Source: Negativicutes bacterium (GTDB lineage: Bacteria > Bacillota > Negativicutes > JAGPMH01). From it: a stretch of 59,304 nucleotides of DNA. Below the pieces are notes generated by a model. It saw nothing but the letters and a program-made list of their open reading frames with translations. It ran no database searches and had not been told where the DNA came from. The translations under genes and the position numbers were made by a program. This document shows positions 4,634 to 50,000 of this stretch, piece by piece (position 1 is the stretch's first letter; every line of letters begins with the position of its first letter). The stretch spans positions 1 to 59,304 of the forward strand of contig JAGPMH010000003.1 in the NCBI GenBank assembly GCA_018052945.1. Direction: 5' to 3'.

Positions 4634-4651
4634 ATTAATAATACTGCCATA

Positions 4652-4684
4652 TAAAAACAATACCTGCGGTTAGATACCGCAGGT
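4652..4684 (-). terminator. Rho-independent terminator of the rplU-prp-rpmA operon
   Basis: On the minus strand, just after the rpmA stop: ACCTGCGGT-atcta-ACCGCAGGT followed by ATTGTTTTT. Confidence 0.7.
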
Positions 4685-4692
4685 AATTAGTT

Positions 4693-4986: not shown

Positions 4987-4987
4987 T

Positions 4988-5308
4988 TCACCTCCCGTGC
5001 TCTGAGATTTTTATGTTTTTAGAATTTATTTTTTCGATTTCAACCAAGCCTAATAGCATGGTTTCAAAAATAGCATCTGTTAATTCATCAGGTTCACTCA
5101 ATAAATTTAGTATTAAATTACCACTCTTTACAACATACTCTACTTCTCGTCGCAAATGCTTTGCTACGCCCAGTATCGCCGTCTGCGTTAACGCTGAAAC
5201 TCCAGCACAAACGATATCTTGTCCGTGCGGTGCCATGTCAGCATGACCGGTAACCTTAAAGCCATTGATTTTTCCTGTTGAATTACGAAAAATTTTAACC
5301 TTAATCAT
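4988..5308 (-). CDS. prp: Ribosomal-processing cysteine protease Prp (YsxB family)
   Basis: 106 aa. GF.VTGHA....[11 protein letters not shown] motif carrying the His/Cys dyad. Lies between rplU and rpmA as in Bacillus and Staphylococcus. Confidence 0.9.
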
Positions 5309-5310
5309 TA

Positions 5311-5625
5311 TTAAGCTTCAATTTTTTCGATTACTACTTTAGTAAATGGTTGACGATGACCTTGACGTTTACGATAGTTTGATTTAGCTTTGTATTTGAA
5401 AACTAAAATCTTTTTCGCTTTGCCTTGAGCCTCAACTTTTGCAGTTACTTTTGCACCTGCAACAAGTGGTTTACCAAAAACAGCATTGCCTTCTTTTACA
5501 ACACTAAGAACTTTGTCAAATTCAACAGTGTCACCTTCGTTAGCATTAAGTTTTTCGATAACTACTACATCGCCTTCGCTTACACGGTATTGTTTACCGC
5601 CTGTTTCGATAATTGCGTACATCAT
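5311..5625 (-). CDS. rplU: 50S ribosomal protein L21
   Basis: [18 protein letters not shown].. is canonical L21. Start is probably the second ATG at 5622. Confidence 0.95.
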
Positions 5626-7205: not shown

Positions 7206-7215
7206 CTCTCCAAAA

Positions 7216-7905
7216 TTAAATTAAATCAATTGGGCTTTTACCATTAGCATATAACCCCGTTCGATGGATCAAGGCATCGTCAGATTTAATGTTTAATGCA
7301 AAATTTTCAGTAATAGCAGTTAAAACATCCGTCGGTTTAACACTGCCTCCCGGTGTTATAATAATTGCCATTGTAATCTTCATAATACTGTTATGAAACT
7401 CAGCTTTAATCGATTCTTTAAGATATTGCTTAATTTCAATTTCCTTACTTTGTTTTGGTGTAATCTTTAAATATTTAAGCTCTGCTACTTTATTAAAGTT
7501 TTCAAGAGCCTCGATAGCAGCTTCAACACTGCCCAATAACGGCACTTCAATGCAATATGTTGCTAAATCAACAATAGCCATTAAAGCTTTTTCTTTCTTC
7601 ATTAAATATTTAGCTTGAAGAACCTTAATTCCTCTTGGCAGCTGTTTTTCAAACTTGGCAATAAATTCTTTTATATCAATTTGCTCTTTTAATTCTAGTT
7701 CCATATATTCAGTAGCACTTGTTAACCCCACTGCTAATGCTGAAGCAAAAGCAAGTTTCATGTGCGGATTAAAACCTTCAGAATATGCCACTGGTATTTC
7801 GGCACGCTTTAAAGCTTTTTCAATTGCCCCTGCATAGTCTAAATGTGATATATAACGAATTTCTTCATCTTTACTTATTTCAACACGCAATTTAATCACG
7901 GGCAT
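7216..7905 (-). CDS. Radical-SAM-associated protein (DUF2344/TIGR03936-like)
   Basis: 229 aa. N-terminus ..RYISHLD....ALRRA..P..YS.GFNPH.K... is the family signature. Overlaps the upstream radical SAM gene by 14 nt. Confidence 0.8.
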   Translation of the reverse strand: MPVIKLRVEISKDEEIRYISHLDYAGAIEKALKRAEIPVAYSEGFNPHMKLAFASALAVGLTSATEYMELELKEQIDIKEFIAKFEKQLPRGIKVLQAKYLMKKEKALMAIVDLATYCIEVPLLGSVEAAIEALENFNKVAELKYLKITPKQSKEIEIKQYLKESIKAEFHNSIMKITMAIIITPGGSVKPTDVLTAITENFALNIKSDDALIHRTGLYANGKSPIDLI

Positions 7906-9748
7906 TTCTCCAATCTATAACTTTAACATCAAGGTTCTGACAAACACCACAAATGCTACAAGTATCTCTCCGGCAATCTACCGTATATTGTTCATTAACA
8001 GCCTGTTCATATTCTGTTATTAAAAACTTTTTAGTTGCCCCTGTCCCGATATGATCCCACGGTAAAACTTCAGTCATATTTCGTTCTCTAGTAACATAGA
8101 AATCAGGCTCAAGATTACATTTAGCTAATGCTTCTAGCCAATTGTCATAATTGAAAAAGTCTGACCATCCATCAAATTTAGCACCTTGTTTCCAAGCTTC
8201 CATTATAACTTTTGATAAGCGACGATCACCTCTAGCAAAAACGCCTTCCATATAGCTTGTTCTGGCATCATGGTATTTAAAGGAAATAGACTTGTCTTTT
8301 ATGTTTTCTTTTAACAGTTGTTGCTTACGATTAATTTCTGCCGTTGTATTTTGAGCATACCACTGAAATGGAGTATGTGGCTTTGGCACAAAGGAAGAAA
8401 CACTAACTGTAACTCTTGCTCCTCTTTTACCAGTAACTTCTTTATAACAATTAACAACTTTTTGTGCTAATGTGGCAATACCAATAATATCTTCATCACT
8501 CTCAGTCGGCAACCCAATCATAAAGTAAAGTTTCACACCACTCCAACCTTTAGCAAAGGCTGCACTAACCGCAGTTATTAAATGTTCTTCCGTTACACCT
8601 TTATTTATCACATCGCGTAGTCGTTGCGTCCCTGCTTCTGGAGCAAAAGTTAAGCCACTTTTTCTTACTTCTTGTACTTTTTGTGCTAAGTCAACCGAAA
8701 AGCTATCAATTCGCAATGATGGCAAAGAAATACTGACCTTGTCTTTTTTGAATTTATCCATTAAACAATCTACTAATTCACTAAGTTTAGAATAATCAGC
8801 TGAACTTAGTGATGTTAACGAAATCTCATCATAACCCGTATTTTTTATCAAATCTTCCGCCAATTTAATTAAGGTTTCCATTTTTCTCTCACGAACCGGT
8901 CGATAAATCACTCCGGCTTGACAAAAACGGCAACCTCTAGTGCAACCTCTAAATAATTCTAACATAATACGATCGTGCACAATGTCAATAAATGGAATGA
9001 CCGGTTTCGTTGGAAACTTAGCATTATCAAGATCGGCAACGATTCTTTTATTAATAATACTTGGAGCTGTTTGTTCTAAAGCAATTATTTCTTTAATGGT
9101 ATTATCAGAATTGTAGTTTACAGCGTAAAAGCTCGGAACATAAATACCTTGAATTTGTGCTACTCTTCTTAATAAACCCTTTCGTCCGTCTGTTTTGTTA
9201 CTATGTTTCCATGAAATAATAACATCCATTACTTCTAATATTATTTCTTCACCTTCACCAATAATGAAAAAATCAAAAAAATCGGCAACCGGTTCCGGAT
9301 TAAACGCACAGGGACCACCGCCAATAACAAATGGGTCTTCCAGATTCCGTTCACTTGATAGCAACGGAATATTAGATAAATGAAGCATATTAATAACATT
9401 GCTATAAATAAGCTCATATTGTAATGAAAAACCTAAAACATCAAAGTTTTTAAGAGGGGTATATGTTTCTAATGAATATAGACTAATTTTATTGCAAGAA
9501 AGCTCATTTTCCATATCAACCCATGGTGCATAAACACGCTCTGCCGCAAGGTCAGCTCTATCATTTAAAACTTCATATAAAATCTTTAATCCTAAGTTGG
9601 ACATTCCAACTTCATAAACATCAGGTAATGCTAAGGCAATAGTAGCTTCAACTTTATTATGATCCTTTATAACACTATTAAGTTCTCCACCGGTATATCT
9701 GGCCGGTTTTAGAACTGAATTAAGTATCGATGGGGAAATTTTAATCAT
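7892..9748 (-). CDS. Radical SAM protein, TIGR03960-like, with B12-binding-like N-domain
   Basis: 618 aa. CTRGCRFCQAG is a CxxxCxxC cluster motif. Conserved partner of the DUF2344 gene upstream of rng in Clostridia-type gene order. Confidence 0.85.
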   Translation of the reverse strand: MIKISPSILNSVLKPARYTGGELNSVIKDHNKVEATIALALPDVYEVGMSNLGLKILYEVLNDRADLAAERVYAPWVDMENELSCNKISLYSLETYTPLKNFDVLGFSLQYELIYSNVINMLHLSNIPLLSSERNLEDPFVIGGGPCAFNPEPVADFFDFFIIGEGEEIILEVMDVIISWKHSNKTDGRKGLLRRVAQIQGIYVPSFYAVNYNSDNTIKEIIALEQTAPSIINKRIVADLDNAKFPTKPVIPFIDIVHDRIMLELFRGCTRGCRFCQAGVIYRPVRERKMETLIKLAEDLIKNTGYDEISLTSLSSADYSKLSELVDCLMDKFKKDKVSISLPSLRIDSFSVDLAQKVQEVRKSGLTFAPEAGTQRLRDVINKGVTEEHLITAVSAAFAKGWSGVKLYFMIGLPTESDEDIIGIATLAQKVVNCYKEVTGKRGARVTVSVSSFVPKPHTPFQWYAQNTTAEINRKQQLLKENIKDKSISFKYHDARTSYMEGVFARGDRRLSKVIMEAWKQGAKFDGWSDFFNYDNWLEALAKCNLEPDFYVTRERNMTEVLPWDHIGTGATKKFLITEYEQAVNEQYTVDCRRDTCSICGVCQNLDVKVIDWRNARD

Positions 9749-28447: not shown

Positions 28448-29668
28448 TTATCTCATTTTCTGTAATATCATCGTCAATGCACTAAATAACCAAAAAAACA
28501 TGCTTAGTTCTATATTAAATAAGACATAATCGGTAAAGCCATTTAATAAGGTAATTACCAAAATAAAAACTAGTCCTAAATTTAATCCTTGCAAAAAATC
28601 ATCGCTATGCTTATTATTGGTAATTCCTATTTTTAAGTGACTAAAGCTAAAGCCTAAAAAACTTAACAAACCAAAAATCCCAATTTCCGCGGCAAAATTC
28701 AAATACATATTGTGGGCATGAACTACTTTTACACTACTATCTTGAATAAAGTAATCATATTGTGGATAAACCAGCCAATATGTCCCCCAACCAATTCCGG
28801 TAAAGATATTATCTCTAATCATATATAACGTACTTTCCCACAACGCTAACCGCATCATCGAAGAAGTATCGTTAGCATTAAAAACCGACAATAATCTAGC
28901 TGTAAAATCTACATTAAAAAATAAAAATAAAGCAATAACAGTTATTCCCGCAACTAAAATTTTCTTATTTTGCTTACCACAATAAAGTAGCAATACTATT
29001 CCCAAGCTCAACCATGCTCCTCGGCAGTATGTAAATAATAAGCAAATAGTTGAGAATAAAAAGATAAAACCAAACAACCCTTTCCAAAAAAGTTCTTTAA
29101 TTTTCCACAACAGCCCAAAACATAGTGCAGAAACCATTAATAAATAGCCCGCCAGAATGTTCGGATTTTGTAATGTTGAAAAAACCCTTGTTTTAAGTTC
29201 CGGAAATTGTTGATCATCAACCCAACGAAATTGCGTAACATCAATCCCATGAAAATATTGATAAAAGCCATAAGAAATAACACCTACTGCCGATAATAAA
29301 ATTGCTGCAATGACTTTTTTTACTTGATGAATATTTTCAATATTTTGAACTAATAAATAATACGTAAGAACATACCGTCCCAATAAATTATAACAATTGT
29401 AAAAACTAAAAAATTTATCAACCGATACTAGAATTGATATTGCTGAAAAAACAACTAATAATGCTATCGGAAGATCAACAATACTATATTTAAACTTCAC
29501 ATCTTTAAAGCAACTTAACTTTATAAGATAAGCTAATGTTCCTGTTAATAAAAAACCACTAGCAATATCTTGATTTAATGCTAAGAAAAAAGCTAACCCC
29601 AAAATGCTATATTCAATAATATAGTTTAATAATGAAAAGTATTTATTATTTTTAAAATATTTATTCAC
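28448..29668 (-). CDS. O-antigen ligase (Wzy_C/WaaL)-family polytopic membrane protein
   Basis: 406 aa with about 10-12 TM segments. HAHNMYLNFAAEIGIFG is the family loop motif. Confidence 0.7.
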   Translation of the reverse strand: MNKYFKNNKYFSLLNYIIEYSILGLAFFLALNQDIASGFLLTGTLAYLIKLSCFKDVKFKYSIVDLPIALLVVFSAISILVSVDKFFSFYNCYNLLGRYVLTYYLLVQNIENIHQVKKVIAAILLSAVGVISYGFYQYFHGIDVTQFRWVDDQQFPELKTRVFSTLQNPNILAGYLLMVSALCFGLLWKIKELFWKGLFGFIFLFSTICLLFTYCRGAWLSLGIVLLLYCGKQNKKILVAGITVIALFLFFNVDFTARLLSVFNANDTSSMMRLALWESTLYMIRDNIFTGIGWGTYWLVYPQYDYFIQDSSVKVVHAHNMYLNFAAEIGIFGLLSFLGFSFSHLKIGITNNKHSDDFLQGLNLGLVFILVITLLNGFTDYVLFNIELSMFFWLFSALTMILQKMR

Positions 29669-30993: not shown

Positions 30994-33651
30994 TCAGTCC
31001 TTTAAACTAGCTAAGTAACTTAATCTTTCATTAATAGCTTTTACTTTTTCCTCAAACTCTTGTTGCTTTGCTTTTTCTTTTTCAATAACATCAGGCGGTG
31101 CTTTTGCCACAAAGCCCTCATTCGATAACTTTCCGCTAACTCGTGCTAACTCTTTATCTAAAGTTAGCAACTCTTTATTTAAACGTGCTGTTTCTTTGTC
31201 TACATCAATTAACCCCTTTAACGGCATATATATTTCCACACCGCTAACCACTGCTGCCATAGCATTTTCTGGTTTTTCCGGTGTTGTTAATGAAACATTT
31301 AATGGTTCTACCGCCGCTAAAGTTTTAACATAACTTGCATTAAGCTCAAAGAGCTCTACTAATTCGGCACTGGCTAATTGTAAGATTGCTTCACTTTTAC
31401 GACCGGGTGCTACATTAACTTCCGCTCTCATATTACGAATTGCCTTAATTGTTTCCATAACTATTTCCATGTTTAGTTCAGCTTTTTTATCAGTTAATGT
31501 AGTTTGTTCTACCGGCCAACTTGCCACAATAATACTATCGCCCTCATGCGGAATATGTTGCCATATTTCTTCAGTAATAAATGGCATGAACGGGTGCAAT
31601 AATTTTAAAGTATTTTCTAAAACATAGCACAACACGGATTGTGCAGTTTGACGAGCTCTACTATCTTCTTTGTTATATAAACGGGCTTTGCTAAGCTCAA
31701 TATACCAATCACAAAATTCATTCCAAATAAATTCATAAATCGCTCTACCAGCTTCCCCTAACTCAAATCGCTCTAAGTTGCGCGTTACATCGCTCACTGT
31801 TTGATTATAACGGCTCAAAATCCACTTATCAGCTAAAGTATAGTCGCTTGCTTGTGGATCAAAGTTTTCATCATAGTCAGTTAAATTCATCAACACAAAT
31901 CGTGAAGCATTCCATAACTTATTAGCAAAATTACGCGTCGACTCTACTCTTTCCCAATAAAATCTCATATCATTTCCCGGCGTATTACCAGTAATCAGCA
32001 TAAAGCGCAAGGTATCGGCACCGTATTTCTCAACAACTTCCAACGGATCAATACCATTGCCTAAAGATTTACTCATCTTGCGTCCTTGAGAGTCACGAAC
32101 TAAACCATGAATAAAGACATGCTTAAATGGTATTTCTTGCTGAAACTCTAAGCCCATCATAATCATTCTAGCAACCCAAAAGAAAATAATATCATAACCG
32201 GTAACCAACACACTAGTAGGGTAAAACTGCTTTAACTCTGGTGTTTGTTCCGGCCAACCCATTGTCGAAAACGGCCATAACGCCGAACTAAACCAAGTGT
32301 CAAGAACATCTTCATCCTGCTTTACATTAGCACTACCACATTTTGGACAACTATTCACACTATCTCTAGCAACAATAGTTTCACCACATTCACAATACCA
32401 CGCTGGAATACGATGTCCCCACCAAATTTGTCGTGAAATACACCAATCCCTAATACCATCCAACCAATTTAAATAAATTTTAGTAAAGCGTTCTGGAACA
32501 AATTTAATTTTTTCTGTTTCAACCGCCGCGATAGCAGGTTGTGCTAACGACTCCATTTTAACAAACCATTGTTTTGACACCATTGGCTCAACAATAGTGC
32601 TACAACGTTGGCATTGTCCCACCGCATGATTATGTTCTTCTATTTTTACTAAAGCGCCAATTGCTTCTAAATCCTGCAATAAAGCTTTGCGACAAGCATA
32701 ACGATCCAAACCTTGATATTTACCGGTATTTTCCGCCATCGTTGCATTGGAATTTAAAATAACAATTTGCTCTAAATTATGACGCTGTCCCATTTCAAAA
32801 TCATTAGGGTCATGAGCCGGAGTAACTTTTACCGCTCCAGTTCCAAACGAAGGATCAACATAATCATCGGCAAATATTGGAATTTTCCGTTCCACTATCG
32901 GCAAAATTAAATTTTTACCAATTAAATGACAATAGCGTTCATCTTCCGGATGCACTGCCACACCACTATCACCCAACATTGTTTCCGGTCTGGTGGTCGC
33001 TACAATTATATATTCATCGCTATTTTCCACTTGGTAACGTAAGTGATATAAATTCCCCGGTTTATCTTCATGTTCTACCTCAATATCACTCAGCGCCGTA
33101 TTACAACGCGGACACCAATTAGTAATGCGATACCCTTGATAAATAAGACCCTTTTCATATAAACTAACAAAAACTTCTCGCACGGCTTTAGAGCAACCCT
33201 CATCCATCGTAAAGCGCTCTCGCTCCCAATCACACGAAGCCCCTAAACTTTTTAATTGGGTTATAATTCTATCACCATATTGTTCTTTCCATTCCCATAC
33301 TTTTTCAATGAATTTATCACGGCCTAAATCATAGCGTGAAATATTATCTTGTGCCAACATTTCTTCAACTTTTATTTGGGTTGCAATCCCCGCATGATCT
33401 GCTCCCGGCATCCATAAAGTATTATACCCTTGCATTCTGCGCCATCTAATTTGAATATCTTGTAGTGTATTATCAAGAGCATGTCCCATATGCAATTGAC
33501 CCGTAACATTTGGTGGCGGAATAACAATGCTAAAAGGCTGTTTATCCATCTTTACTTCAGCATGAAATAACTTATTATCTTCCCAATACTTATACCATTT
33601 TTTCTCAAAACTTTGCGGATCATAAACCGTCGGAATATTTTTTTCTTCCAT
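30994..33651 (-). CDS. valS: Valine--tRNA ligase
   Basis: 885 aa. [13 protein letters not shown] (HIGH), KMSKS, and a C-terminal coiled coil. Confidence 0.98.
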
Positions 33652-33664
33652 GTTAAACCTCCTG

Positions 33665-33928
33665 ATTTCTACTCAAAAAAATATAAAAGCCCTTCATCCC
33701 AAAGGACGAAAGGGCTTACTTTCGTGGTACCACCTTAATTTTCCATAGCACTTTTACTATGAACTCAACGCCAATAACGAGGCGAACCGATTACACCTAC
33801 TATAAATTTCAGCATAACAGCTCCAAAGCTACCTTCCATTATGTTTTATGAAAGACCTCTCAGCCTAGGGTCTTCTCTCTTGCCATAAAATTATAATGTA
33901 CTCTCTTCTTCATTGCCTTTTTTATATA
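33665..33928 (-). promoter_or_regulatory. T-box leader controlling valS
   Basis: Minus strand carries AGAGAG/GA motifs and the T-box sequence AAATTAAGGTGGTACCACGAAAG (33719-33740). This overlaps the terminator AAGCCCTTTCGTCC..GGATGAAGGGCTTTT plus a T run (about 33675-33718). The specifier was not confidently placed by eye. Confidence 0.85.
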
Positions 33929-35077: not shown

Positions 35078-36967
35078 TCACTCTATATTTTTCAGCCATA
35101 AATTCTGAAACAACTCAGCTTGTGCTGTAATCGCTTTAATAACATCTTTTAAAAAGTCGAAATTACTGGCCAAAACAGCATTAATATACTCATTTTTAAT
35201 GATAATAATATTGGCCTTTTTGGAAATAACCTTGGCACTAATAGAACTTTCTTTAGCTTCAAATAAATTATTATATGAAATAATATTACCGAAACTCAAA
35301 TCTCCAAGCTTACGATTCCACCCATCATTACTACTTCTAATAACCTCTACTAAGCCCTCGTAAATAAGATAGATATTATCTTGCAATTCACCTTCCGCTA
35401 AAATAATATCACCTTTAATATATTTTTTTACCATGATATTTTTTGTTAATGTTTGCCATTCCTTATCAGTTAAATTACCAAACAATTCTTTTTTTCTAAG
35501 CTCTGCTAAGCCCAACTTGAAAATACGCTCTTCCTCAGCGGTATCAACAATATCTTCAGGTTCTTCGATTAGCTTTAGCTCTGAAATTTTAGCATTAGGT
35601 TTTGTTACCATCTGCGTTAACACGCCAAGAAAATTAATTAATAAGTTTTCAATATTGTTTTTGCTAAATACTATTTTATTGTAAACAAATTCAATCTGAA
35701 TTATTTCGTCAATTTTTCGAAAATAAATTATGAGGTCATTTTCATTATCATCATAAGAATTAATCGCTACAATTTTTACCCCCAACGAAAAATCAACTTC
35801 AGTAAATCTTTTGCTATTATAAAAATCATAAAAGTTTAAAACATGATTAAAGAGATTCTTGCAGTTCGGCCAAAGGAGTTCTAATTCTTTTTGACTACAA
35901 CCACTATAGCTTTTTGCAATAAATAAATGAACTTGTTGGCGTTTAAACGCATAGCCAATTCTATCTTCCTGATTTTCTCTTAATCGCACCGGTAAAATAT
36001 TAATCACATTTGAAAAATCGGCATTATCAATATCATCATTGTGGTTAGATAAGACTATCCCAAAAGTAGCATCATTTTCTTTACTATATTTTTGTAACAT
36101 CAATCCCCAAGCTGTTTCAAATAAAGCTATTAATCGACCATTAGTATTAGCAAATTCAGTAGTAAGATTTGTCAAATTTTCATCTAGTTCTGTCACAAAC
36201 GAATCTCGTTCATATAACCCTAAATCATTTTGACTCATCGGTAATTCCGGAGCCTTTGCATCAAATAGTATTTTCTTCCAATATGCAAAGGTTTTAATAA
36301 TATCTTCCTTACTGCGATTTTCTAAATACTGCGTAAAAGAATATTGCCGCGAACTCGGCATTTGCGCAATTAAGTCTAATCCTTCTTGATCCTGAAAAAT
36401 ACCATTGAAAATATTTTTCATATCCCAATTATCTTCAATTAATTGTGGGAAAACAATCAACATCGCATAGGTATCGGCTGCAAATCTTATCACTCTAACC
36501 CGCAGTAGCCGATCTTTTTTTAAATCAAACCCTCGCCGTTGTCCCACCAACAATAATTCATCCAAAAAATAATCAATATTGTCTACTTTCATTTTTATAT
36601 AATCTAAAAAAATTATTTCCGGTGCTCGCTCCGGTAAAATTACTTGTAAGCTTCTCTCATTATTAATAAAAAAAGCTGTCCGCAAAATTGGATTATTCTT
36701 TGCCATTTTTACCAAATTATCTTTTATTATTTTTATATCAATAATGCCTTTTAATTTAAACAATACTTGATTGCAACAATTAGGTGAAAGAAACGACTTA
36801 TTATCTAGCACCCACTGTTGACTTTTGTTGAGCGGCTTAACATCTTCAATACTGTAAAAATAATAACTTCTGATTTCTTTTAACTCTTCTTCTGTTAATT
36901 GAGCAATAGAAAAATCAGTTTCAACATACTTTTGGTTTTTTTCTGTTACTATTGGCATAAAATTCAC
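35078..36967 (-). CDS. Condensation-domain-like / cyclic-nucleotide-binding-like fusion protein, paralogue B
   Basis: 629 aa. C1-like EDVKPLNKSQQWVL, C2-like NNPILRTAF, C3 position FPQLIEDNWD (HHxxxDG degenerate), C5-like VINILPVRL. C-terminal CAP-like barrel: YIKGDIILAEGELQDNIYLIYEGLVEV. AGAGGG RBS; 25 nt from paralogue A. Confidence 0.75.
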   Translation of the reverse strand: MNFMPIVTEKNQKYVETDFSIAQLTEEELKEIRSYYFYSIEDVKPLNKSQQWVLDNKSFLSPNCCNQVLFKLKGIIDIKIIKDNLVKMAKNNPILRTAFFINNERSLQVILPERAPEIIFLDYIKMKVDNIDYFLDELLLVGQRRGFDLKKDRLLRVRVIRFAADTYAMLIVFPQLIEDNWDMKNIFNGIFQDQEGLDLIAQMPSSRQYSFTQYLENRSKEDIIKTFAYWKKILFDAKAPELPMSQNDLGLYERDSFVTELDENLTNLTTEFANTNGRLIALFETAWGLMLQKYSKENDATFGIVLSNHNDDIDNADFSNVINILPVRLRENQEDRIGYAFKRQQVHLFIAKSYSGCSQKELELLWPNCKNLFNHVLNFYDFYNSKRFTEVDFSLGVKIVAINSYDDNENDLIIYFRKIDEIIQIEFVYNKIVFSKNNIENLLINFLGVLTQMVTKPNAKISELKLIEEPEDIVDTAEEERIFKLGLAELRKKELFGNLTDKEWQTLTKNIMVKKYIKGDIILAEGELQDNIYLIYEGLVEVIRSSNDGWNRKLGDLSFGNIISYNNLFEAKESSISAKVISKKANIIIIKNEYINAVLASNFDFLKDVIKAITAQAELFQNLWLKNIE

Positions 36968-36992
36968 GCCCTCTTTAAGTATTTACAATATC

Positions 36993-38879
36993 TCAGTTTT
37001 TATTATCAACCCATAATTGTTGAAATTTATCAACTTGTGCTGTAATAGATTGAATTACTGCCTTAGCAAAGTCATAATTATTTTTTATAATTTCAGTAGC
37101 AGTTTCGTTACGCACTGCAATAATAGTAGCTTCTTGCGATACAACTCGTGCCCTTAAGCTACTTTCTTTATTGTCAAAAATACCGTCATAAGAAATAAAT
37201 TCACCTTTTTCGATTGTTGCAATTTTCATCGTCCAACCACTTTCTATCGTTCTGCGCAATTCCACCGCACCATCGTAAATAAGATATAGATATTCTTGTT
37301 TTTCACCTTCCGCTAAAATAATATCACCATAAATATAGTTCTTGACCACAATTCCTCTTATTAGCAAGCCTAATTCAACATCAGATAATGCCCTAAATAT
37401 TTCTTTACTACGTAATAATTGAGTAATATTTAACTTTAAGTTTTCTTCATGCTTCACCGGATTTAAAACATCTTGTGGCAAATTAATTTCACCAAGGGGC
37501 AGCCCTTGATCTTTTAAGATTTGATTAATAATATAAAAATAATCTTCCTTGATTTTTTTTATATGAACTTCACTAAAAGCTTCGCGATTATAAATAAACT
37601 CAATTTGAATCTTCTTAGTTAACCGAAAAACAACTACTAAATCTAAATTATAACAATCATAAGATGATAATTTAACTACATTAACACCTAACGCCACCTC
37701 TGCTTGGGTGTATTTTTCTTGCTTATAAAAACTATGAAAATTAAGCATGTGATTAAAGAGAGTTTTCCCACTGAATAAATTCTCCAGTTCTCTTATATTA
37801 CAGCCACTATAAGCCCGTGCTAAAATTAAGTTTGCTTGCTGCCGTTTAACCACATCACTAACCTTTGCAGTTTCACTTTCATTTATACGTACCGGCACCA
37901 AATTTATAATATTAACAAAATCAAGATTATCTTCTTTTCCATCGCGATAATTCGATAACAATAGCGGAAAGACCGCATCATTTACTTTGTTATATTTTTG
38001 GAGCATTATCCCCCATGCAGTTTGTAATAAAACAATCGCATTGGTATTATTTTCTAAATGCTTTTTTATATAAGAAAACATTTTATCATCAATTTCAAAT
38101 AATAATGAATTCATAACATAAGTGTTGCAAGCTTTATGCCCCGGCAACTTTGTTTCAGTAAAGTTATATAGTTTCTTTTGCCAATATTCTAAAGTTTTAC
38201 TAATATCAATGTCCTTGCGTCGCTCTAAATGCTGCGCAAAAGAATATCGTTTAGGAGCAATCATTTTTGCCAAAACATCATCGGTTTCTTGTTCACTAAA
38301 AATTCCATCAAATAAATGTCTAACATCCCAGCCATCAGCTATTATTTGCGGTTGTTGGATGGTAATAGCATAATCCGCATACCCAAAACGCAGTACTCTT
38401 ATTCTAAGCAATCTGTCTTTTTTTAAATCAAAAAAGCGTCGCCGATCTGCAGCCAAAATATTTTCAACAATTTCATCAATTTCAAATTCCGTCAGTTTAT
38501 CTTTCGTAAAATCTATAAAGGTCATTTCCGGACTTCGATCTTGAAGGATGATTTGTAAGGCACGCTCTTGTTGCTTTAAGATGAACGCACTGCGTAATAA
38601 TTCATTGTTTTTTACTAATCCATTAATATTATTTTTGATTTTATTAATGTCAATTAAACCCCTAATTTTAAATAGAATTTGAATACAAAAATTAGGTGAA
38701 ATAATCCCTTGATTATCTAGCACCCACGCCTGACTTTTTGATATCAATTTAACATCTTCGACACTAGCAGAATATTCTTTATTGATAAATTCTTCTTCAG
38801 TACTTGTTAATAGTCCTACACTATATTCTTTCGGCGGATAATATTGTTTTATTTTTTCTTCAAAAGTCATTGTATCCAC
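36993..38879 (-). CDS. Condensation-domain-like / cyclic-nucleotide-binding-like fusion protein, paralogue A
   Basis: 628 aa. C1-like EDVKLISKSQAWVL, C2-like NNELLRSAF, C3 position QPQIIADGWD, C5-like FVNIINLVPVRI. C-terminal YIYGDIILAEGEKQEYLYLIYDGAVEL. Collinear with paralogue B. Confidence 0.75.
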   Translation of the reverse strand: MDTMTFEEKIKQYYPPKEYSVGLLTSTEEEFINKEYSASVEDVKLISKSQAWVLDNQGIISPNFCIQILFKIRGLIDINKIKNNINGLVKNNELLRSAFILKQQERALQIILQDRSPEMTFIDFTKDKLTEFEIDEIVENILAADRRRFFDLKKDRLLRIRVLRFGYADYAITIQQPQIIADGWDVRHLFDGIFSEQETDDVLAKMIAPKRYSFAQHLERRKDIDISKTLEYWQKKLYNFTETKLPGHKACNTYVMNSLLFEIDDKMFSYIKKHLENNTNAIVLLQTAWGIMLQKYNKVNDAVFPLLLSNYRDGKEDNLDFVNIINLVPVRINESETAKVSDVVKRQQANLILARAYSGCNIRELENLFSGKTLFNHMLNFHSFYKQEKYTQAEVALGVNVVKLSSYDCYNLDLVVVFRLTKKIQIEFIYNREAFSEVHIKKIKEDYFYIINQILKDQGLPLGEINLPQDVLNPVKHEENLKLNITQLLRSKEIFRALSDVELGLLIRGIVVKNYIYGDIILAEGEKQEYLYLIYDGAVELRRTIESGWTMKIATIEKGEFISYDGIFDNKESSLRARVVSQEATIIAVRNETATEIIKNNYDFAKAVIQSITAQVDKFQQLWVDNKN

Positions 38880-38904
38880 ACTCCATTTAAGATAACTTAG
38901 TTAA

Positions 38905-38933
38905 ATTATACCATTATGATTTTTTACAAACAA
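38905..38933 (-). promoter_or_regulatory. Extended -10 promoter of the paralogue pair
   Basis: Minus strand TTGTTT (38928-38933), 17-nt spacer ending in TGg, TATAAT (38905-38910). GGAG RBS about 10 nt before the ATG at 38879. Confidence 0.55.
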
Positions 38934-38980
38934 TAAATTCCATTCTTACAATCTTGTTTTTTCTTCGCCTTTTTATAACA

Positions 38981-39026
38981 AAAAGCAACAAAATAGCTCT
39001 TATGTAAGAGGCTATCTTGTTGCTTT
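38981..39026 (-). terminator. Rho-independent terminator of the DEAD-box helicase gene
   Basis: Minus strand AAAAGCAACAAGATAGCCTCTTA-cat-AAGAGCTATTTTGTTGCTTTTT (one mismatch and one bulge), ending in a T run. Confidence 0.75.
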
Positions 39027-39036
39027 TTGCTTCTTT

Positions 39037-42542: not shown

Positions 42543-45500
42543 TTAAGATTTTTTCTTAAACATATTATTAATTCTTGCGGTTATTTTTTCAATGATAATG
42601 AATAGTACCGGTATCAAAAATACTCCCATTACCGTTGCAACAAGCATTCCGCCAACTACCGCATTACCCATTGCCGTTCTAGCTCCAGCTCCAGCTCCGG
42701 AAGCAATTGCTAATGGTACACAACCAATAATAAAGGCTAATGAAGTCATAATAATCGGTCTAAGTCTAAGTTTAGAAGCCTCAATAGCTGCTTTCACCGG
42801 ATCCATGCCATCATCAACCCTGACTTTAGCAAATTCCACAATTAAAATTGCATTTTTTGCCGCCAAGCCCACTAGCATGATTAAACCAATCTGCATATAA
42901 ATACTATTTTGGAAATCTCTCAGATATTGCGCTAGTAATGCTCCAAATATCCCCGTCGGTACACATAACAAGACCGCATAAGGAATACTCCAGCTTTCAT
43001 ATAACGCTGCCAAGCACAAGAATACAAAGACTAAGGCCAAGGCAAAAACCACTAAGGTTCTATTGCCAGCTTTTTGCTCTTCACGACTTTGCCCCGACCA
43101 TTCATATTTAAACCCAGTAGGCATCACTTCATTAGCAACCTCTTGCATTGCCGCCAACGCTTGCCCTGAACTATAACCAGGCGCAGGGGAACCATTAACT
43201 TGAATACTACGGGCAGCATTAAAGCGATTAATAATTGCCGGTGCAGTATTTTTCTTCGGTTTAATTAAAGTATCAAGTGGAACCATCGTACCAGTTTCAC
43301 TTTTTACAAATAAAAATCTAGTTAAATCAGCTTCATTACGATAATGACTATCAGCTTGCATTACGACTTTATAAGTTCTACCAAAACGATTAAAATCATT
43401 TACTTGTAAGCCCCCAAAGTTTACTTGTAATGCATTAAACACGTCATTTAGATTAACCCCTAAGTTTTTAACTTTTTCTCTGTCAACTTCAAATTCATAA
43501 CCAGGTGAGTTAATTTTAAAAGTTGAATACGCTCTTGATATTTCAGGTCGTTTATTAGCAGCTGCCACAATTTTCTTTGTAACTTCATCTAATTCTTGGT
43601 CAGTATGACCTGTCATATCTTGAACCATCATCGTAAAGCCACCAACCATCCCTAACCCCGGTAACGCCGGTAAGTTAAAGGCCATAACATTAGCTTCGGT
43701 AACTTTAGCAGAGTTCATCATTGTTTGCATTACTAAGGATTGAATTTGTGTTTCCTTAGTCTTTCTTGCACTCCATGGCTCAAGCCCAACGAAAATACTA
43801 CCGGCACTTGATTTAGTGCTACCGGATAATATATCGTACCCGGAAATAGCAAGAGTTCTGGCCACTCCCGGTTGTTCGCCAATTTGTGCTGCAATTTTAT
43901 CCACTGTTTCTTCGGTTCTATTTAAACTAGTTCCTTCCGGTAAAGACACTGAAGTAACATAGTACCCTTGATCTTCTTCCGGGACAAAAGTTGTCGGAAC
44001 CATTTTATATAGCGCCCCGGTTAAAATTATTAAAATTATTAAAAACAATACCCCAAGTTTAGCCTTGCCAATTAAATTAGCCACAGTTTCACCATAAGAT
44101 TCTGTTTTCGCTTCAAACCAAGTATTGAATTTATCAAAAAATCTCCCAAGGAAACCTTGATGAGCATTAGGATCATGTGGTTTTAACATCATTGCACATA
44201 ATGCTGGAGTCAAAGACAATGCCACAAAGGCCGATAAGCCCATTGATACAGCAATAGTTAATGCAAATTGTTTGTACAAAATCCCCATCATTCCGCCGAA
44301 AAAGGCTACTGGAATAAATACCGATGCCAAAACAAAGGCAATCGCCACAACCGGACCGGCAACTTCTTCCATTGCCTTCGCCGTAGCAGCTTTAGGGCTT
44401 AAACCATTGTAGCGCATATGATGTTCAACTGCTTCAATAACAACAATCGCATCATCAACAACCAAACCAATCGCTAATACCATGGCAAATAAAGTCAAAG
44501 TATTAATCGAAAAGCCCATTATAATAAATGCACCAAAGGTACCAATTAGTGATACCGGAATTGCTAACATTGGAATTAAAGTCGCTCGCCAACTTTGTAA
44601 GAATAAAAATACTACTAATAATACCAATAGCAATGCTTCAAATAAAGTCTTGATAACTTCGGCTACTGATTCTCTGATATATTCAGTGTTATCAACAATT
44701 TCTTTATATTCCATACCGCTTGGGAAACTTTTCGCTGCTTCTTCTACAACTTTTCGTGCTTCCGTTACAGTGTCAAGCGCATTAGCATCACTAGTTAATT
44801 GAATCCCAAAACCAATTGAAGGCTTACCATTCATTTTACTGATAAAATCAATTGATTTTGCACCGGTTTCAATTCTCGCTACATCTTTTAAGTAAACAAA
44901 CGAACCATTCGGTTTGGCCTTTACAATAACATTTTCAAAGTCTTGCACTGTCGCCAATCGACCTTGAATTTTACCGGTATACTGAAATTCCTGCCCGGTT
45001 GGTGCCGGTAATTGCCCAATCGTGCCCGCCGGCGCTTGAACGTTTTGTTCTTTTAAAGCTTTAGAAACATCCGCAACCGTTAAGTTTAATTCTGCCAATT
45101 TATCAGGATTAAGCCAAACCCTCATTGAAAAATCAGCACCAAATACCATAATATCGCCAACGCCTTTAACTCGTTTTAACGAGTCAAACAAATATACATC
45201 GGCATAATTTTTTAAAAATACATCATCAAAGGTATTGTCCGGTGAATATAACGCTACCATATACGCCATATCTGCTGAAGCTTTTTTGGTTGTTATTCCA
45301 ACTTGTTGAACTTCACTTGGTAAGCTGGCATTAGCTTGCGCCACTCTATTTTGTGTTTGCACCGAGGCAATATCACCATTAACCCCAGACTCAAACTGAA
45401 TTGTCAAACTGTAGCGCCCACTATCAGCACTACTTGAACTCATATAGTTCATACCTTCAATGCCATTAATTTGTTGTTCAATAACTTGTGCTACTGTTTT

Positions 45501-45674
45501 GTTAACAACATCAGAGTTCGCACCAACATAAGTAGTTCCAACAGTTACTGTCGGTGGTTGTATTTGTGGATATTGTGCAATCGGTAAATTCAAACCGGCG
45601 ATTGTTCCCGCTAGAACAATCATAATCGATAGAACTATTGCAAATATCGGCCTTTCAATAAAAAACTTAGCCAC
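42543..45674 (-). CDS. acrB: RND multidrug efflux transporter, HAE1/AcrB family
   Basis: 1043 aa. MAKFFIERPIFA.. N-terminus, 12-TM architecture with two large periplasmic loops, conserved ..VVDDAIVVIE... Confidence 0.95.
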   Translation of the reverse strand: MAKFFIERPIFAIVLSIMIVLAGTIAGLNLPIAQYPQIQPPTVTVGTTYVGANSDVVNKTVAQVIEQQINGIEGMNYMSSSSADSGRYSLTIQFESGVNGDIASVQTQNRVAQANASLPSEVQQVGITTKKASADMAYMVALYSPDNTFDDVFLKNYADVYLFDSLKRVKGVGDIMVFGADFSMRVWLNPDKLAELNLTVADVSKALKEQNVQAPAGTIGQLPAPTGQEFQYTGKIQGRLATVQDFENVIVKAKPNGSFVYLKDVARIETGAKSIDFISKMNGKPSIGFGIQLTSDANALDTVTEARKVVEEAAKSFPSGMEYKEIVDNTEYIRESVAEVIKTLFEALLLVLLVVFLFLQSWRATLIPMLAIPVSLIGTFGAFIIMGFSINTLTLFAMVLAIGLVVDDAIVVIEAVEHHMRYNGLSPKAATAKAMEEVAGPVVAIAFVLASVFIPVAFFGGMMGILYKQFALTIAVSMGLSAFVALSLTPALCAMMLKPHDPNAHQGFLGRFFDKFNTWFEAKTESYGETVANLIGKAKLGVLFLIILIILTGALYKMVPTTFVPEEDQGYYVTSVSLPEGTSLNRTEETVDKIAAQIGEQPGVARTLAISGYDILSGSTKSSAGSIFVGLEPWSARKTKETQIQSLVMQTMMNSAKVTEANVMAFNLPALPGLGMVGGFTMMVQDMTGHTDQELDEVTKKIVAAANKRPEISRAYSTFKINSPGYEFEVDREKVKNLGVNLNDVFNALQVNFGGLQVNDFNRFGRTYKVVMQADSHYRNEADLTRFLFVKSETGTMVPLDTLIKPKKNTAPAIINRFNAARSIQVNGSPAPGYSSGQALAAMQEVANEVMPTGFKYEWSGQSREEQKAGNRTLVVFALALVFVFLCLAALYESWSIPYAVLLCVPTGIFGALLAQYLRDFQNSIYMQIGLIMLVGLAAKNAILIVEFAKVRVDDGMDPVKAAIEASKLRLRPIIMTSLAFIIGCVPLAIASGAGAGARTAMGNAVVGGMLVATVMGVFLIPVLFIIIEKITARINNMFKKKS

Positions 45675-45687
45675 TAATAACGCCCCC

Positions 45688-46845
45688 TTAAATGTTGGTT
45701 GACAGTTGTAGTTGTTCTGCTGTCACCATTTCCACGGCCAAAGGAGCTCCATTTTGAACCTTATTTAAGCCTTCAACAACAATCACATCATTTGCTGTTA
45801 TACCGGACTCCACAATAAAGAAGCTTCCAACTCTACTACCAATTTTAACTTCTTTCATTTCCGCTTTATTTTCCGCTCCTACAATTACGACAAAAGTTTT
45901 TTCTAAAACTTGTTGAACTGCGCGTTGCGGAATCAACAATGCCCCTTGTTTCATTTCACCGGTCATCTTAATTCTCGCAAACATCCCCGGAATTAAAATT
46001 TTATTAGGATTGCCAAACAACGCTTTTAATGTTAATGTACCTGAATTATTTGCTAGAGTACTGTCAACTTGTTCTACAGCCCCTTTTAACGGATATTCAG
46101 TACCATCACTTAGAGTAATAGTGACATTATTGCCCCATTTTTCGGTAAAACCATTTTGGTGGTTTTTCGCCAATGATAAATATTCATTTTCACTCATGCT
46201 AAATTGTATAAAAACAGGATCCGTAGAGGAAATTGTAGCTAAAGTAGTAGTGCCACTTTGCACGTAATTTCCAACGCTCAATTCATTAACATCCAGTCTT
46301 CCGTCAACTGGCGCTACTATTAGCGTATCATTTAAGTCATCTGTTGCTTTTTGCACATTTGCTCTATTATATTCCACAACTGCCGCATGTTGACTTTCCA
46401 CCGACTGTTGCGTGTCAAGTTTTTGCTTATCAATAGCTTCTTGTGCTGCTAACGCAAGGTATCTTTGAGTATCTAACCTTGAATTGCTAAGATTAGCCTC
46501 CGCTTGTGCTAATTGAGCTTTAGCTGATAATACAACACTTTCATATTGACGCGAATCGATTCTAAATAAAGGTTGTCCTTTACGAACCATTTCACCACCG
46601 GAAACATATTTTTCTACAATATTTCCTGATACTCTAGCTTGTACCTTTACTTCATTCTTTGCTTTAACCTGACCAGCATATTCATATACCAGTGGAGTAT
46701 CTTTTTGCATGACATTCATAGCCTTAACAGGAACTGCTTGTCCTGGTTTAGCACCTTGTTGGTTTCCGCAGCCAAAAAAAGCCGCTGTTGCTAACACTAC
46801 TATCAATGCTAAACTAATCACTTTTACCTTCTTGTTTACAATCAC
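45688..46845 (-). CDS. acrA: RND efflux periplasmic adaptor (membrane fusion protein) lipoprotein
   Basis: 385 aa. Signal peptide with ..AAFFGC lipobox-like Cys, then biotinyl/lipoyl-like and beta-barrel MFP motifs (..RVSGNIVEKYV..G..V.KGQPLFRID..). Confidence 0.9.
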   Translation of the reverse strand: MIVNKKVKVISLALIVVLATAAFFGCGNQQGAKPGQAVPVKAMNVMQKDTPLVYEYAGQVKAKNEVKVQARVSGNIVEKYVSGGEMVRKGQPLFRIDSRQYESVVLSAKAQLAQAEANLSNSRLDTQRYLALAAQEAIDKQKLDTQQSVESQHAAVVEYNRANVQKATDDLNDTLIVAPVDGRLDVNELSVGNYVQSGTTTLATISSTDPVFIQFSMSENEYLSLAKNHQNGFTEKWGNNVTITLSDGTEYPLKGAVEQVDSTLANNSGTLTLKALFGNPNKILIPGMFARIKMTGEMKQGALLIPQRAVQQVLEKTFVVIVGAENKAEMKEVKIGSRVGSFFIVESGITANDVIVVEGLNKVQNGAPLAVEMVTAEQLQLSTNI

Positions 46846-49662: not shown

Positions 49663-49738
<76 letters not shown>

Positions 49739-49748
49739 ATATTAAATT

Positions 49749-49823
49749 TGGTGACCCGTAGGGGAATCGAACCCCTGATACCGCCGTGAAAGGGCGGTGT
49801 CTTAACCGCTTGACCAACGGGCC
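49749..49823 (-). tRNA. tRNA-Glu (anticodon TTC), CCA-encoded
   Basis: 75 nt. GGCCCGTTGGTCAAGCGGTTAAGAC..CCGCC-CTTTCAC-GGCGG..GGTTCGATTCC..CCA. Confidence 0.9.
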
Positions 49824-49842
49824 ATATTAATAACTATTTAAA

Positions 49843-49917
49843 TGGTGGGCCCACCTGGGTTCGAACCAGGGACCAACCGGTTATGAGCCGGTTGCTCTAC
49901 CACTGAGCTATAGGCCC
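49843..49917 (-). tRNA. tRNA with CAT anticodon (Met by anticodon; features suggest the lysidine-modified Ile2 type)
   Basis: 75 nt. GGGCCTATAGCTCAGTGGTAGAGC-AACCGG-CTCATAA-CCGGTT-GGTC..GGTTCGAACC..CCA. C4-G69 and C5-G68 pairs and the overall resemblance to E. coli ileX are discussed in the findings. Confidence 0.85.
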
Positions 49918-49924
49918 AAATAAA

Positions 49925-50000
49925 TGGCTCCTTGAGTAGGACTCGAACCTACGACCGATCGGTTAACAGCCGATTGCTCTACCAACTGAGCTATCAAGGA
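49925..50000 (-). tRNA. tRNA-Asn (anticodon GTT), CCA-encoded
   Basis: 76 nt. TCCTTGATAGCTCAGTTGGTAGAGC-AATCGG-CTGTTAA-CCGATC..GGTTCGAGTCC..CCA. Confidence 0.9.

Follow-up and report, generated by a model that had tools for sequence, protein, structure and literature searches.

A tandem pair of condensation and CAP-type fusion proteins from Negativicutes, probably not part of a cyclic-nucleotide-gated peptide synthetase

The gene pair and its surroundings

Two co-directional genes, designated here A and B, lie on the minus strand of a 59,304-nucleotide stretch of DNA (the window, analysed as a whole) from a diderm, sewage-dwelling Firmicute. Gene A (36993-38870) is an open reading frame with matches to Pfam families PF00668 (Condensation) and PF00027 (cNMP-binding), and encodes 625 aa from an ATG at 38870; gene B (35078-36958) is a paralogue with the same architecture, and encodes 626 aa from an ATG at 36958. 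The original prediction described proteins of 628 and 629 aa from genes 25 nt apart, and these frames are indeed present when the alternative GTG starts at 38879 (A) and 36967 (B) are used. However, the ATG codons are likely to be the true starts, since each has a ribosome binding site 10 nt 5' of it (GGAG for A, AGAGGG for B) and since public gene calls give the same 625- and 626-residue products, with a 34-nt gap. The two proteins align end to end with 43% identity (E 2e-174), and all of the shared blocks quoted previously (FDLKKDRLLR, GDIILAEGE, ITAQ..FQ.LW, EDVK..KSQ.WVL, NN..LR(S/T)AF, and VNIIN..PVR) are found. The exact A protein occurs in 164 public assembly blocks, in every one of which B follows it. 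Co-expression of A and B is plausible, given the 34-nt gap, across which no terminator was detected, and the nearly equal sizes of their protein clusters (263 and 262 members, respectively).

Upstream of A, the gene for a DEAD-box helicase ends in an intrinsic terminator (38977-39031, minus strand), whose predicted RNA hairpin has a stability of -31.2 kcal/mol (z = -7.5, with 0/200 shuffles as stable) and is followed by a U-run, UUUUUGUU. Thus, the strong terminator that had been proposed to insulate the pair from the helicase gene is real. The proposal that the pair has its own promoter is less secure: a plausible candidate extended -10 element for the A-B unit, TGgTATAAT (38905-38913, minus strand), can be read before A, but its -35 sequence is poor, and for this reason it went unreported in a scan for consensus promoters. 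Likewise, the reported AT-richness holds only in part. The GC content of A and B (0.30-0.31) lies below the mean, which is 0.35 (z -1.2 to -1.6); in GC3 and codon usage, however, neither gene stands out in the window, the pair ranking 24th and 28th among 43 genes in codon-usage distance. There are no mobile-element genes flanking A and B. A foreign AT-rich island was considered and rejected, since the two genes have native codon usage and keep their synteny in a second species.

For most of the window, Pfam tables were taken from near-identical contigs, and the ORFs left over were scanned directly; neither source contained an AMP-binding, PP-binding, thioesterase, PPTase, or MbtH family. This confirms the earlier statement that the 59 kb carry no such genes and, hence, that no assembly line is encoded here.

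The condensation domain and the helix that precedes it

The condensation domain occupies residues 39-467 of A (37470-38756, minus strand) and 38-468 of B (35555-36847, minus strand). Both match nearly the entire 456-position PF00668 model (positions 3-449 in A, E 3.9e-43; positions 2-451 in B, E 1e-43), with scores of 148 and 150 bits against a gathering cut-off of 30.6. An AlphaFold2 (AF2) model of the full-length protein is of moderate quality (pLDDT 69.5, pTM 0.49); within this limit it has the two-lobed CAT-like fold, and all of its 50 top Foldseek matches are condensation-family domains (target TM about 0.6). The best match of the A domain is the condensation domain of SrfA-C (E 7e-29).

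As had been predicted, the core motifs are kept in the canonical order, and both the family alignment and a profile alignment to BacC extend this to all seven, C1-C7. What the earlier reading overlooked is that both histidines of C3 are missing. In place of HHxxxDG(W), the alignments give QPQIIADGW in A (38328-38354, minus strand) and FPQLIEDNW in B (36425-36451, minus strand), so that the textbook motif is absent from both; in A, the first His is replaced by Pro and the catalytic His by Gln. In addition, the Arg of the conserved SGR motif is gone from A (LSNY) and B (LSNH), and in the A/B family the E-N of the C7 region is swapped for H-S or Y-D. With a Gln for the catalytic His and the SGR Arg lost, a canonical condensation mechanism cannot, from sequence, be assumed for A and B; together, the SGR and C7 changes may mean that their active site no longer works.

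The condensation domain is preceded by a short helix. Residues 20-34 of A (38769-38813, minus strand) carry a hydrophobic x-x-I/L-x-x-x-Y pattern that is suggestive of a COM donor helix, and positions 8-50 of the family profile align to the cis-COM segment in the E-COM-C structure of bacitracin synthetase 3 (9rde). The conserved residues of the COM helix are L, I, and Y (PMC12402864). An L-x-x-I-x-x-x-Y sequence is seen in B and in most of the family, while A carries an E at the first position; in A, the AF2 model is helical over residues 26-39. By sequence, then, this segment appears to resemble the COM docking helix that precedes post-epimerization condensation domains.

The C-terminal CAP-type domain

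A flexible linker joins the condensation domain to a CAP/CNB-type domain at residues 471-625 of A (36996-37460, minus strand) and 472-626 of B (35081-35545, minus strand). PF00027 is matched above its gathering score of 27.5 bits in both proteins (36.0 bits, E 7e-9, in A; 30.8 bits, E 3e-7, in B). Modeled alone by AF2 (pLDDT 86.6, pTM 0.79), the domain is an eight-stranded β-barrel with flanking helices, which Foldseek matches to DNR, CRP, GlxR, and the CNB-B domain of PKG at TM 0.7-0.8; the CAP/Crp-type barrel that had been proposed is therefore upheld as a fold. In A, the domain closes with a 26-residue C-helix, after which there is no DNA-binding domain: a helix-turn-helix is absent, and the NCBIfam matches span only positions 8-131 of regulator models that are 214 to 251 residues long. 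The C-terminal region is thus better named a CRP/FNR-type sensor domain without its DNA-binding part.

The phosphate-binding cassette is another matter. The PfPKG cassette FGEAAL..RSAT aligns to ISYDGI..SSLR in A (within ISYDGIF..ESSLRA, 37149-37196, minus strand) and to ISYNNL..SSIS in B (within ISYNNLF..ESSISA, 35234-35281, minus strand). The cassette Gly, Glu, and Arg, which hold the ribose and phosphate, are all missing from A and B; the Arg-Ser/Thr-Ala of the cassette is found in no member of the family alignment, and sequence conservation in this segment is poor among family members. Because the Gly-Glu and the Arg are absent, canonical binding of cAMP or cGMP by the A and B domains is unlikely.

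The family, its genomic context, and its conservation

The fusion of a condensation domain to a CAP-type domain is very rare. A word-indexed search of 5.8 billion proteins gave about 10 clusters, an exhaustive search gave 8 full-length clusters among its top 150 hits, and every named family member is from Negativicutes. No paper on such a fusion was found in the literature searched, in agreement with the original remark that no characterized precedent for it was known. The A and B proteins are real and conserved, and they belong to a small family that is undescribed in the papers searched.

The tree and a table of motifs place a clade that retains the catalytic His (P0010, P0141, L015) at the base of the family. 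All members outside of it, including the most degenerate ones (L016, L017), have Gln at the catalytic position, with the exception of P0014, which has His; the branch with A and B has Pro-Gln instead of His-His. Only Gln or His occupies this position across proteins that are 20-35% identical. The PF00668 score declines within the family: the His clade has 221 bits, A and B have 148-150, and L016 has 72.

The location of the family gene differs between lineages. One His-clade neighborhood contains genes for a PP-binding protein and an Sfp-type PPTase; another is an NRPS cluster with GT2, acyl ligase, A-T-C, A-T, and methyltransferase genes. Gln-clade loci, in contrast, have housekeeping surroundings: no PP-binding, AMP-binding, ACPS, or thioesterase gene other than a housekeeping acpS is found in the window or in the contigs of the Gln-clade relatives, and there is no upstream epimerization-domain partner in the window or at Gln-clade loci. 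Since the basal, His-retaining members adjoin carrier-protein and Sfp-type PPTase genes or lie in an NRPS cluster, the data point to an origin of the family as a trans-acting NRPS condensation protein, with the A/B clade having left this context. The pair is thus an orphan within its own window, but the label does not extend to the basal members.

Other genes were seen near family members. Partner-switching genes for STAS and SpoIIE-phosphatase proteins adjoin the most degenerate clade (L017), and P0010 likewise has a STAS gene in its vicinity, together with a MatE-HATPase_c_2 gene. In a Sporomusales-like clade, a gene for an MBL-fold protein with a Pfam match to Apyc1, a cyclic-nucleotide phosphodiesterase, is located two genes upstream.

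A and B arose by a duplication specific to their lineage, and purifying selection has maintained both copies in two species. The second species retains the pair in synteny at 69% and 75% identity although synonymous divergence is saturated, dN/dS is about 0.04-0.2 in both genes and both domains (0.04-0.13 in the condensation domain), and hundreds of metagenome contigs carry intact frames.

What the pair may do

The reading that we tentatively prefer, although we would not wager heavily on it, takes A and B for a regulated condensation protein of a non-canonical Gln type that acts in trans and is probably dimeric. Its ancestor would have been a trans-acting, sensor-regulated NRPS condensation enzyme, and the condensation-domain tunnel would still be in use. 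The Gln, invariant but for one reversion to His, could position the acceptor nucleophile, by analogy with the HQxxxDM motif of ORF18, and an acyl or aminoacyl group would be transferred from a thioester donor, which would be acyl-CoA or a holo-carrier protein whose gene lies elsewhere. The CAP-type domain would bind a partner, or a ligand other than cAMP/cGMP, and pass the signal on through its N-terminal helix and C-helix; it would probably also dimerize the protein, such that A and B might form a heterodimer (pure inference) where single-copy relatives form homodimers. The fold, the DCL-type relatives, the putative COM-like helix, the size and taxonomy of the family, its tree and motif table, the NRPS context of the His clade and the housekeeping context of the Gln clade, the purifying selection, and the plausible co-expression of the pair support a Gln-type enzyme, as does, by analogy, the existence of ORF18 as an active Gln-containing condensation domain. 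What counts against it is that the 59 kb contain no gene for a carrier, an adenylation domain, or a PPTase, that the SGR Arg is lost and C7 replaced, and that the Pfam Condensation scores fall; the poorly conserved cassette segment also weakens the idea of one ligand shared by the family.

Nearly as likely as a Gln-type enzyme is a pseudoenzyme, in which a non-catalytic condensation domain serves as a binding or scaffold module and A and B work in a signaling or regulatory complex. The tunnel or surface would recognize a ligand or partner, and the CAP-type domain would give dimerization or a second input. The loss of both HHxxxDG histidines and of the SGR Arg fits such a role, as do the absence of a carrier or adenylation partner from the neighborhood in all Gln-clade genomes, the progressive decay of similarity to the canonical profile, and the partner-switching genes by L017 and near P0010; there is, moreover, a solved precedent among the Foldseek matches (4tx2) for a degenerate condensation fold as a recruitment platform. 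However, a dead site whose side chain faces the tunnel would not be expected to hold only Gln or His at 20-35% identity. All seven core motifs are retained, purifying selection on the condensation domain is strong, and an active HQxxxDM domain is known, which also count against a pseudoenzyme.

A bolder proposal, to which we give a rather low probability, is that a Negativicutes condensation domain escaped from NRPS lines and was recruited for housekeeping regulation. Its Gln-type tunnel would then receive an acyl-thioester metabolite such as acyl-CoA or acyl-ACP, or slowly turn it over, the CRP-type domain, which lacks an HTH, would dimerize the protein and couple it to downstream partners, and A and B would be a duplicated heterodimer. 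If so, this would be the first condensation-domain protein to act as a free-living sensor/signaling module outside of natural-product synthesis.

The version offered in the original prediction, an acyl or peptidyl transferase gated by a cyclic nucleotide in the manner of the cAMP-activated GNAT acetyltransferase MtPat, is very doubtful. It draws on the PF00027 match, on the CNB fold, which is shared with such structural matches as PKG, PKA, and CRP, on the precedent of MtPat Rv0998, whose fused cAMP domain allosterically controls an acyltransferase (PMC8556138), and on the Apyc1-like MBL-fold gene of the Sporomusales-like clade. Nevertheless, A and B lack the cassette residues by which cyclic-nucleotide binding is defined, the best relatives of the CAP-type domain include PrfA and DNR, no cyclase gene is present in the window, and PADLOC defence models (Pycsar, CBASS, and similar) gave no match at E 0.01 or better. 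With textbook key residues missing from both of their domains, A and B are probably not part of a cyclic-nucleotide-gated peptide synthetase. Least probable of all, and largely refuted, is a functionless remnant of a lost NRPS cluster or recent foreign island, for although the GC content is rather low, the textbook catalytic residues are gone, and the genomic place differs by lineage, the open frames in hundreds of contigs, the low dN/dS in both genes and domains, the retention of both copies in a second species despite saturated synonymous sites, the native GC3 and codon usage, and the lack of flanking mobile-element genes all speak against it.

Comparison with known systems

By family profile and Foldseek, the closest solved relatives of the condensation domain are BacC cis-E-COM-C, SrfA-C, TycB module 2, and PvdL E2-C3 (entries 9rde, at E 8e-79, 2vsq, 9bfd_B, and 8f7f), all of which follow an epimerization domain (DCL type). 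The A/B family shares with the DCL-type domains of BacC module 5, SrfA-C, TycB module 2, and PvdL C3 the C1-C7 order, and its N-terminal helix resembles the COM helix by sequence. Unlike them, its members stand alone, an A, T, or E domain being found neither in the protein nor nearby, and A and B have PQ for HH and a C-terminal CAP-type domain. As single proteins of condensation fold, A and B instead resemble VibH and CmnI (9uay, among the Foldseek matches) and, more widely, PapA5 and WS/DGAT. Enzymes of the VibH/CmnI type act in trans, their donor being bound to a carrier or to CoA; to our knowledge, free-standing condensation enzymes keep HHxxxDG, are encoded in or near their own pathways, and have no fused sensor domain.

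A degenerate active site within a condensation fold is also seen in the teicoplanin X-domain (4tx2). The X-domain of glycopeptide NRPSs is a protein-recruitment platform that brings in P450s; in contrast to A and B, it forms part of the last module of an NRPS. The C-terminal domain has its best relatives, by structure and by full-length sequence, in DNR and PrfA, and they share its long C-helix, which in the CRP/FNR family is the dimer interface. We know of no use of cyclic nucleotides by either. They differ from A and B, which end at the C-helix, in having a helix-turn-helix.

The Gln at the position of the catalytic His has a counterpart, by description, in streptothricin ORF18, whose HQxxxDM condensation domain is active and becomes less so upon a Q-to-A change (reviewed in PMC11546977). 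ORF18, however, is a C-PCP protein within a biosynthetic cluster, retains the first His, and lacks a sensor domain. As a model for how the A/B family might function, the closest analogues are the cAMP-GNAT protein acetyltransferases MtPat and MsPat, in which a CNB-type domain is likewise fused to an acyltransferase and controls it allosterically; MtPat differs in its GNAT fold, its N-terminal sensor, and its functional cAMP cassette.

Organization and control signals of the gene pair

Genes A and B, which lie in tandem on the minus strand, encode functional, constrained proteins whose condensation and CAP-type folds are intact, without the catalytic histidine or the cyclic-nucleotide cassette. 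As originally predicted, they are co-directional paralogues, collinear over their whole length (43% identity, E 2e-174), and all of the sequence blocks quoted in that prediction are found in their alignment. An ORF scan places A at 36993-38879 and B at 35078-36967 when the proposed GTG starts are used. However, these GTG codons lie only 1 nt from the ribosome-binding sites, which are GGAG, 10 nt 5' of an ATG at 38870 (A), and AGAGGG, 10 nt 5' of an ATG at 36958 (B). This spacing and the public gene calls for the identical proteins favor the ATG starts, giving products of 625 and 626 aa and a gap of 34 nt rather than 25 nt.

Upstream of A, the DEAD-box helicase gene ends in the strong terminator that had been claimed, a U-run preceded by a hairpin at 38977-39031 (-31.2 kcal/mol, z -7.5). 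A promoter belonging to the pair is plausible, since the candidate TGgTATAAT can be read from the sequence at 38905-38913, but it went unreported by a consensus promoter scan, whose matches were no commoner than in shuffled sequence. No terminator was found between A and B and none that is convincing 3' of B, so the B transcript may read through into the exonuclease gene. Downstream of the exonuclease and DUF523 genes, a separate unit of transcription starts with a T-box leader (33699-33922, minus strand; Rfam RF00230, 137 bits) that lies upstream of valS (30994-33651).

The remaining genes of the window are housekeeping genes: proBA, obg, rplU-prp-rpmA, rng, rodA, minCDE, pbp2, mreBCD, the methylmalonyl-CoA pathway, rex, folC, valS with its leader, htpG, an RND efflux pair, purB, rpoD, dnaG, glyQS, recO, and era. 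As had been stated, adenylation, carrier, thioesterase, PPTase, and MbtH families are absent from them. A tRNA array (Val-TAC, Glu-TTC, Met-CAT, Asn-GTT; 49663-50000, minus strand) lies between purB and rpoD. Across the window (1-59304) GC skew stays negative and almost all genes are on the minus strand, as would fit a single replichore in a genome of Firmicute type; a diderm Firmicute host is indicated by a Wzy_C gene (28448-29668), the RND efflux pair (42543-46845), and the order rplU-prp-rpmA-spo0B-like-obg. The impression that the pair is richer in AT than its flanks is partly borne out by the GC content of A and B (0.30-0.31, at the low end of a window with a mean of 0.35), but GC3 and synonymous codon usage are average, with distances ranking 24th and 28th among 43 genes. 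It is therefore amino-acid composition, and not foreign origin, that lowers the GC content.

The condensation domain

The predicted architecture is upheld by profile searches: both proteins match the Pfam Condensation model over its full length (E 4e-43 for A, 1e-43 for B) and cNMP_binding (E 7e-9 and 3e-7), each above curated cut-offs. NCBIfam, which has no whole-protein model for A or B, contributes only partial matches, both to CRP/FNR regulators (in their effector halves) and to an NRPS model. Structural comparison of the full-length predicted monomer, a model of moderate quality (pLDDT 69.5), had only condensation-family structures among its best 50 matches, the first being the SrfA-C condensation domain (E 7e-29).

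At the C3 position, the canonical HHxxxDGW is replaced by QPQIIADGW in A and FPQLIEDNW in B, so that proline stands for the first histidine and glutamine for the catalytic second one. Single-copy relatives have 104 near-invariant positions, of which A keeps 77 and B keeps 73. The arginine of the SGR motif, which in VibH forms a salt bridge to the aspartate of HHxxxDG, is lost, leaving LSNY in A (37947-37958) and LSNH in B (36041-36052). This loss of the SGR/SNR arginine is seen in both paralogues of both species that carry the pair; all other family members and canonical condensation domains keep it.

By profile, the nearest relatives of solved structure are BacC cis-E-COM-C (E 8e-79), SrfA-C, TycB, and PvdL E2-C3, in all of which the condensation domain takes its donor from a module ending in an epimerization domain. 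The alignment to BacC begins within its cis-COM segment, and the N-terminal helix in B and most of the family resembles the COM helix (Diecker et al.) in its hydrophobic x-x-I/L-x-x-x-Y pattern, whose first position is E in A. Together these two features suggest descent from a condensation domain excised at an E/COM-C junction.

The C-terminal sensor domain

The claim of a CAP/Crp-like C-terminal beta-barrel holds for the fold. In an AlphaFold model of the domain alone (pLDDT 86.6), the CNB beta-barrel carries one helix at the N-terminus and a C-helix of 26 residues. Structurally the domain is nearest to DNR, CRP, and GlxR proteins and the CNB-B domain of PKG; by full-length sequence, PrfA and DNR match it best. 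The residues that would hold a cyclic nucleotide are another matter: neither A nor B has the Gly-Glu or the Arg of the phosphate-binding cassette, nor, in the alignments, does any other family member (Plasmodium PKG has FGEAAL...RSAT opposite ISYDGI...SSLR of A). The domain thus probably does not bind the ligand that the label 'cNMP-binding' suggests. A and B also have no DNA-binding domain, since each protein ends where its C-helix ends.

Distribution and phylogeny of the family

A word-indexed search covering 5.8 billion proteins found 10 clusters of 625-713 aa, each carrying both of these Pfam domains, and profile re-search of that database yielded nothing beyond the proteins already found. 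When 1.8 billion representatives were searched exhaustively by profile, at least 8 full-length, single-stretch family clusters stood among the best 150 matches, the remainder being megasynthases; this count is a lower bound, because giant multi-C-domain synthetases dominate the best 150 and weaker members, such as those at loci L016 and L017, are uncounted. The taxonomic survey called for originally, a one-genome-per-species scan with two patterns, found 8 loci, 7 of them in named Negativicutes (Massilibacillus, Veillonellaceae, Selenomonadaceae, Schwartzia, Selenomonadales); the eighth, L015, has a record titled only 'bacterium isolate'. (The scan's ninth match comes from a Candidatus Aminicenantes MAG; it is not a family member but an NRPS condensation domain of the ordinary kind.) The architecture is real and rare. 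From the named relatives, and from gene content, the host is taken to be a member of Negativicutes. The exact A protein occurs in 164 assembly blocks, with B following it in every one, and the host is common in sewage metagenomes. The family is a lineage marker for sewage-abundant diderm Firmicutes.

In a neighbor-joining tree of condensation domains, rooted with canonical NRPS domains, proteins P0010 and P0141 and the L015 member are basal, and all three keep the catalytic histidine (QPHIN.D). Every non-basal member has glutamine at this position except P0014, whose histidine is a reversion or a retention. Even the most eroded members, L016 and L017, still keep the glutamine (MSQLLNEKF).

Two records deserve comment. 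The P0004 homologue (L005, GCA_017889595.1, 1937-3880) carries the name 'amino acid adenylation protein [Firmicutes bacterium]' yet lacks an adenylation domain, an annotation error able to propagate; like 'cNMP-binding', which implies a ligand probably not bound, it shows how automatic annotation misleads. At the start of the L015 contig (2-346), a translated ORF contains about 10 tandem copies of the 9-residue unit MHTGRESAG, probably a tandem DNA repeat or a contig-end assembly artefact.

Genomic contexts and duplication

The pair had been described as an orphan, which is correct within the window but not for its basal relatives, whose contexts are biosynthetic. P0010 has a PP-binding protein on one side and an Sfp-type PPTase on the other, and MatE-HATPase_c_2, STAS, and alpha/beta-hydrolase genes are close by; the L015 gene is followed by genes for a glycosyltransferase, an acyl ligase, an A-T-C protein, an A-T protein, and an FkbM methyltransferase. 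A and B are derived from relatives within carrier-dependent pathways.

Members with glutamine lie among housekeeping genes, at sites that vary by lineage. In Selenomonadaceae (L013, 6997-10445; L014, 5600-11857), the family gene directly follows radical-SAM, DUF2344, and rng, which in the window lie at 5766-9748, 30 kb away from A and B; the gene has therefore moved between housekeeping sites. In a Massilibacillus/Veillonellaceae-like clade (L002-L007, L010, L011; e.g. the L003 region 382-5579), a single family gene lies 3' of a DUF3006 gene and of an MBL-fold gene whose Pfam match is Apyc1-like (cyclic-nucleotide phosphodiesterase), and within 9-38 nt on its 3' side come an AMIN-Amidase_3 gene and a GerM-like gene. 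No functional link to these neighbors is drawn, because the whole 20 kb is syntenic within the clade and the arrangement is absent from the window, Selenomonadaceae, and elsewhere. At L017 (11732-16526) one STAS gene plus two dCache-HAMP-SpoIIE phosphatase genes lie directly downstream of the family gene, and at L008 (4519-6609) a MatE-HATPase_c_2 fusion and a STAS gene do so; these partner-switching genes, beside two separate clades, may hint at a link to signalling.

A and B form one clade, so the duplication is lineage-specific. A second species keeps both copies and the same downstream genes, with 69% (A) and 75% (B) identity, which places the duplication, as judged from these sequences, before the two species split. 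In both domains dN/dS is low (0.12-0.19 for A, 0.04-0.20 for B).

Mode of action

How condensation domains catalyse is still debated, especially as regards the second histidine. Activity can survive mutation of this residue, and in streptothricin ORF18, whose condensation domain has HQxxxDM, it depends in part on that glutamine (PMC11546977, Int J Mol Sci 2024 review). Across family proteins only 20-35% identical, the tunnel-facing position holds only glutamine or histidine, from which we infer that the tunnel is still used. The favored reading is that A and B would act in trans as a Gln-type, non-canonical transferase on a thioester donor encoded elsewhere, regulated by the CRP-type domain, which would probably also dimerize the protein, A and B forming a heterodimer.

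Almost as likely is that A and B are pseudoenzymes, as argued by the extra residue losses in both, the absence of a partner gene, and the partner-switching genes that adjoin two other clades. The cyclic-nucleotide-gated transferase of the original prediction is unlikely, given the missing cassette. A dead remnant or a foreign island is largely excluded by the selection on the genes, their synteny in the second species, and their typical GC3 and codon usage, the last two being grounds on which the island was rejected. Polyamine attachment to peptidoglycan is a Negativicutes trait; a link to it was dropped because condensation depends on a thioester donor and only 8 Negativicutes species of the scanned collection have the family.

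The passage from cluster-embedded members with histidine to orphans with glutamine under strong purifying selection is a natural series that tests the function of this residue in the active site. If functional, the fusion would be the first condensation protein under allosteric control, and it might serve as a switch in NRPS engineering.

Relation to known systems

To our knowledge, condensation domains are known almost solely as parts or satellites of natural-product assembly lines. By descent A and B belong to the DCL/COM-associated branch of the condensation-domain superfamily, but they lack both its defining active-site feature and its carrier-linked context. Their fold is that of the CNB family, but the cassette residues are absent, and lacking an HTH they are not CRP/FNR regulators. 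They match none of the PADLOC defence models; for this reason, and because there is no cyclase gene in the window, a defence system with a cNMP-sensing effector was rejected. A literature search on the condensation plus CRP-type sensor architecture found nothing relevant, in keeping with the original claim, so that as far as this search shows the architecture is undescribed. Its evolutionary trajectory is informative, but it is not a new kind of system: A and B are a variant of known domain kinds, and their closest functional analogue is MtPat, the cAMP-GNAT acetyltransferase, in which a fused CNB domain controls the acyltransferase (PMC8556138).
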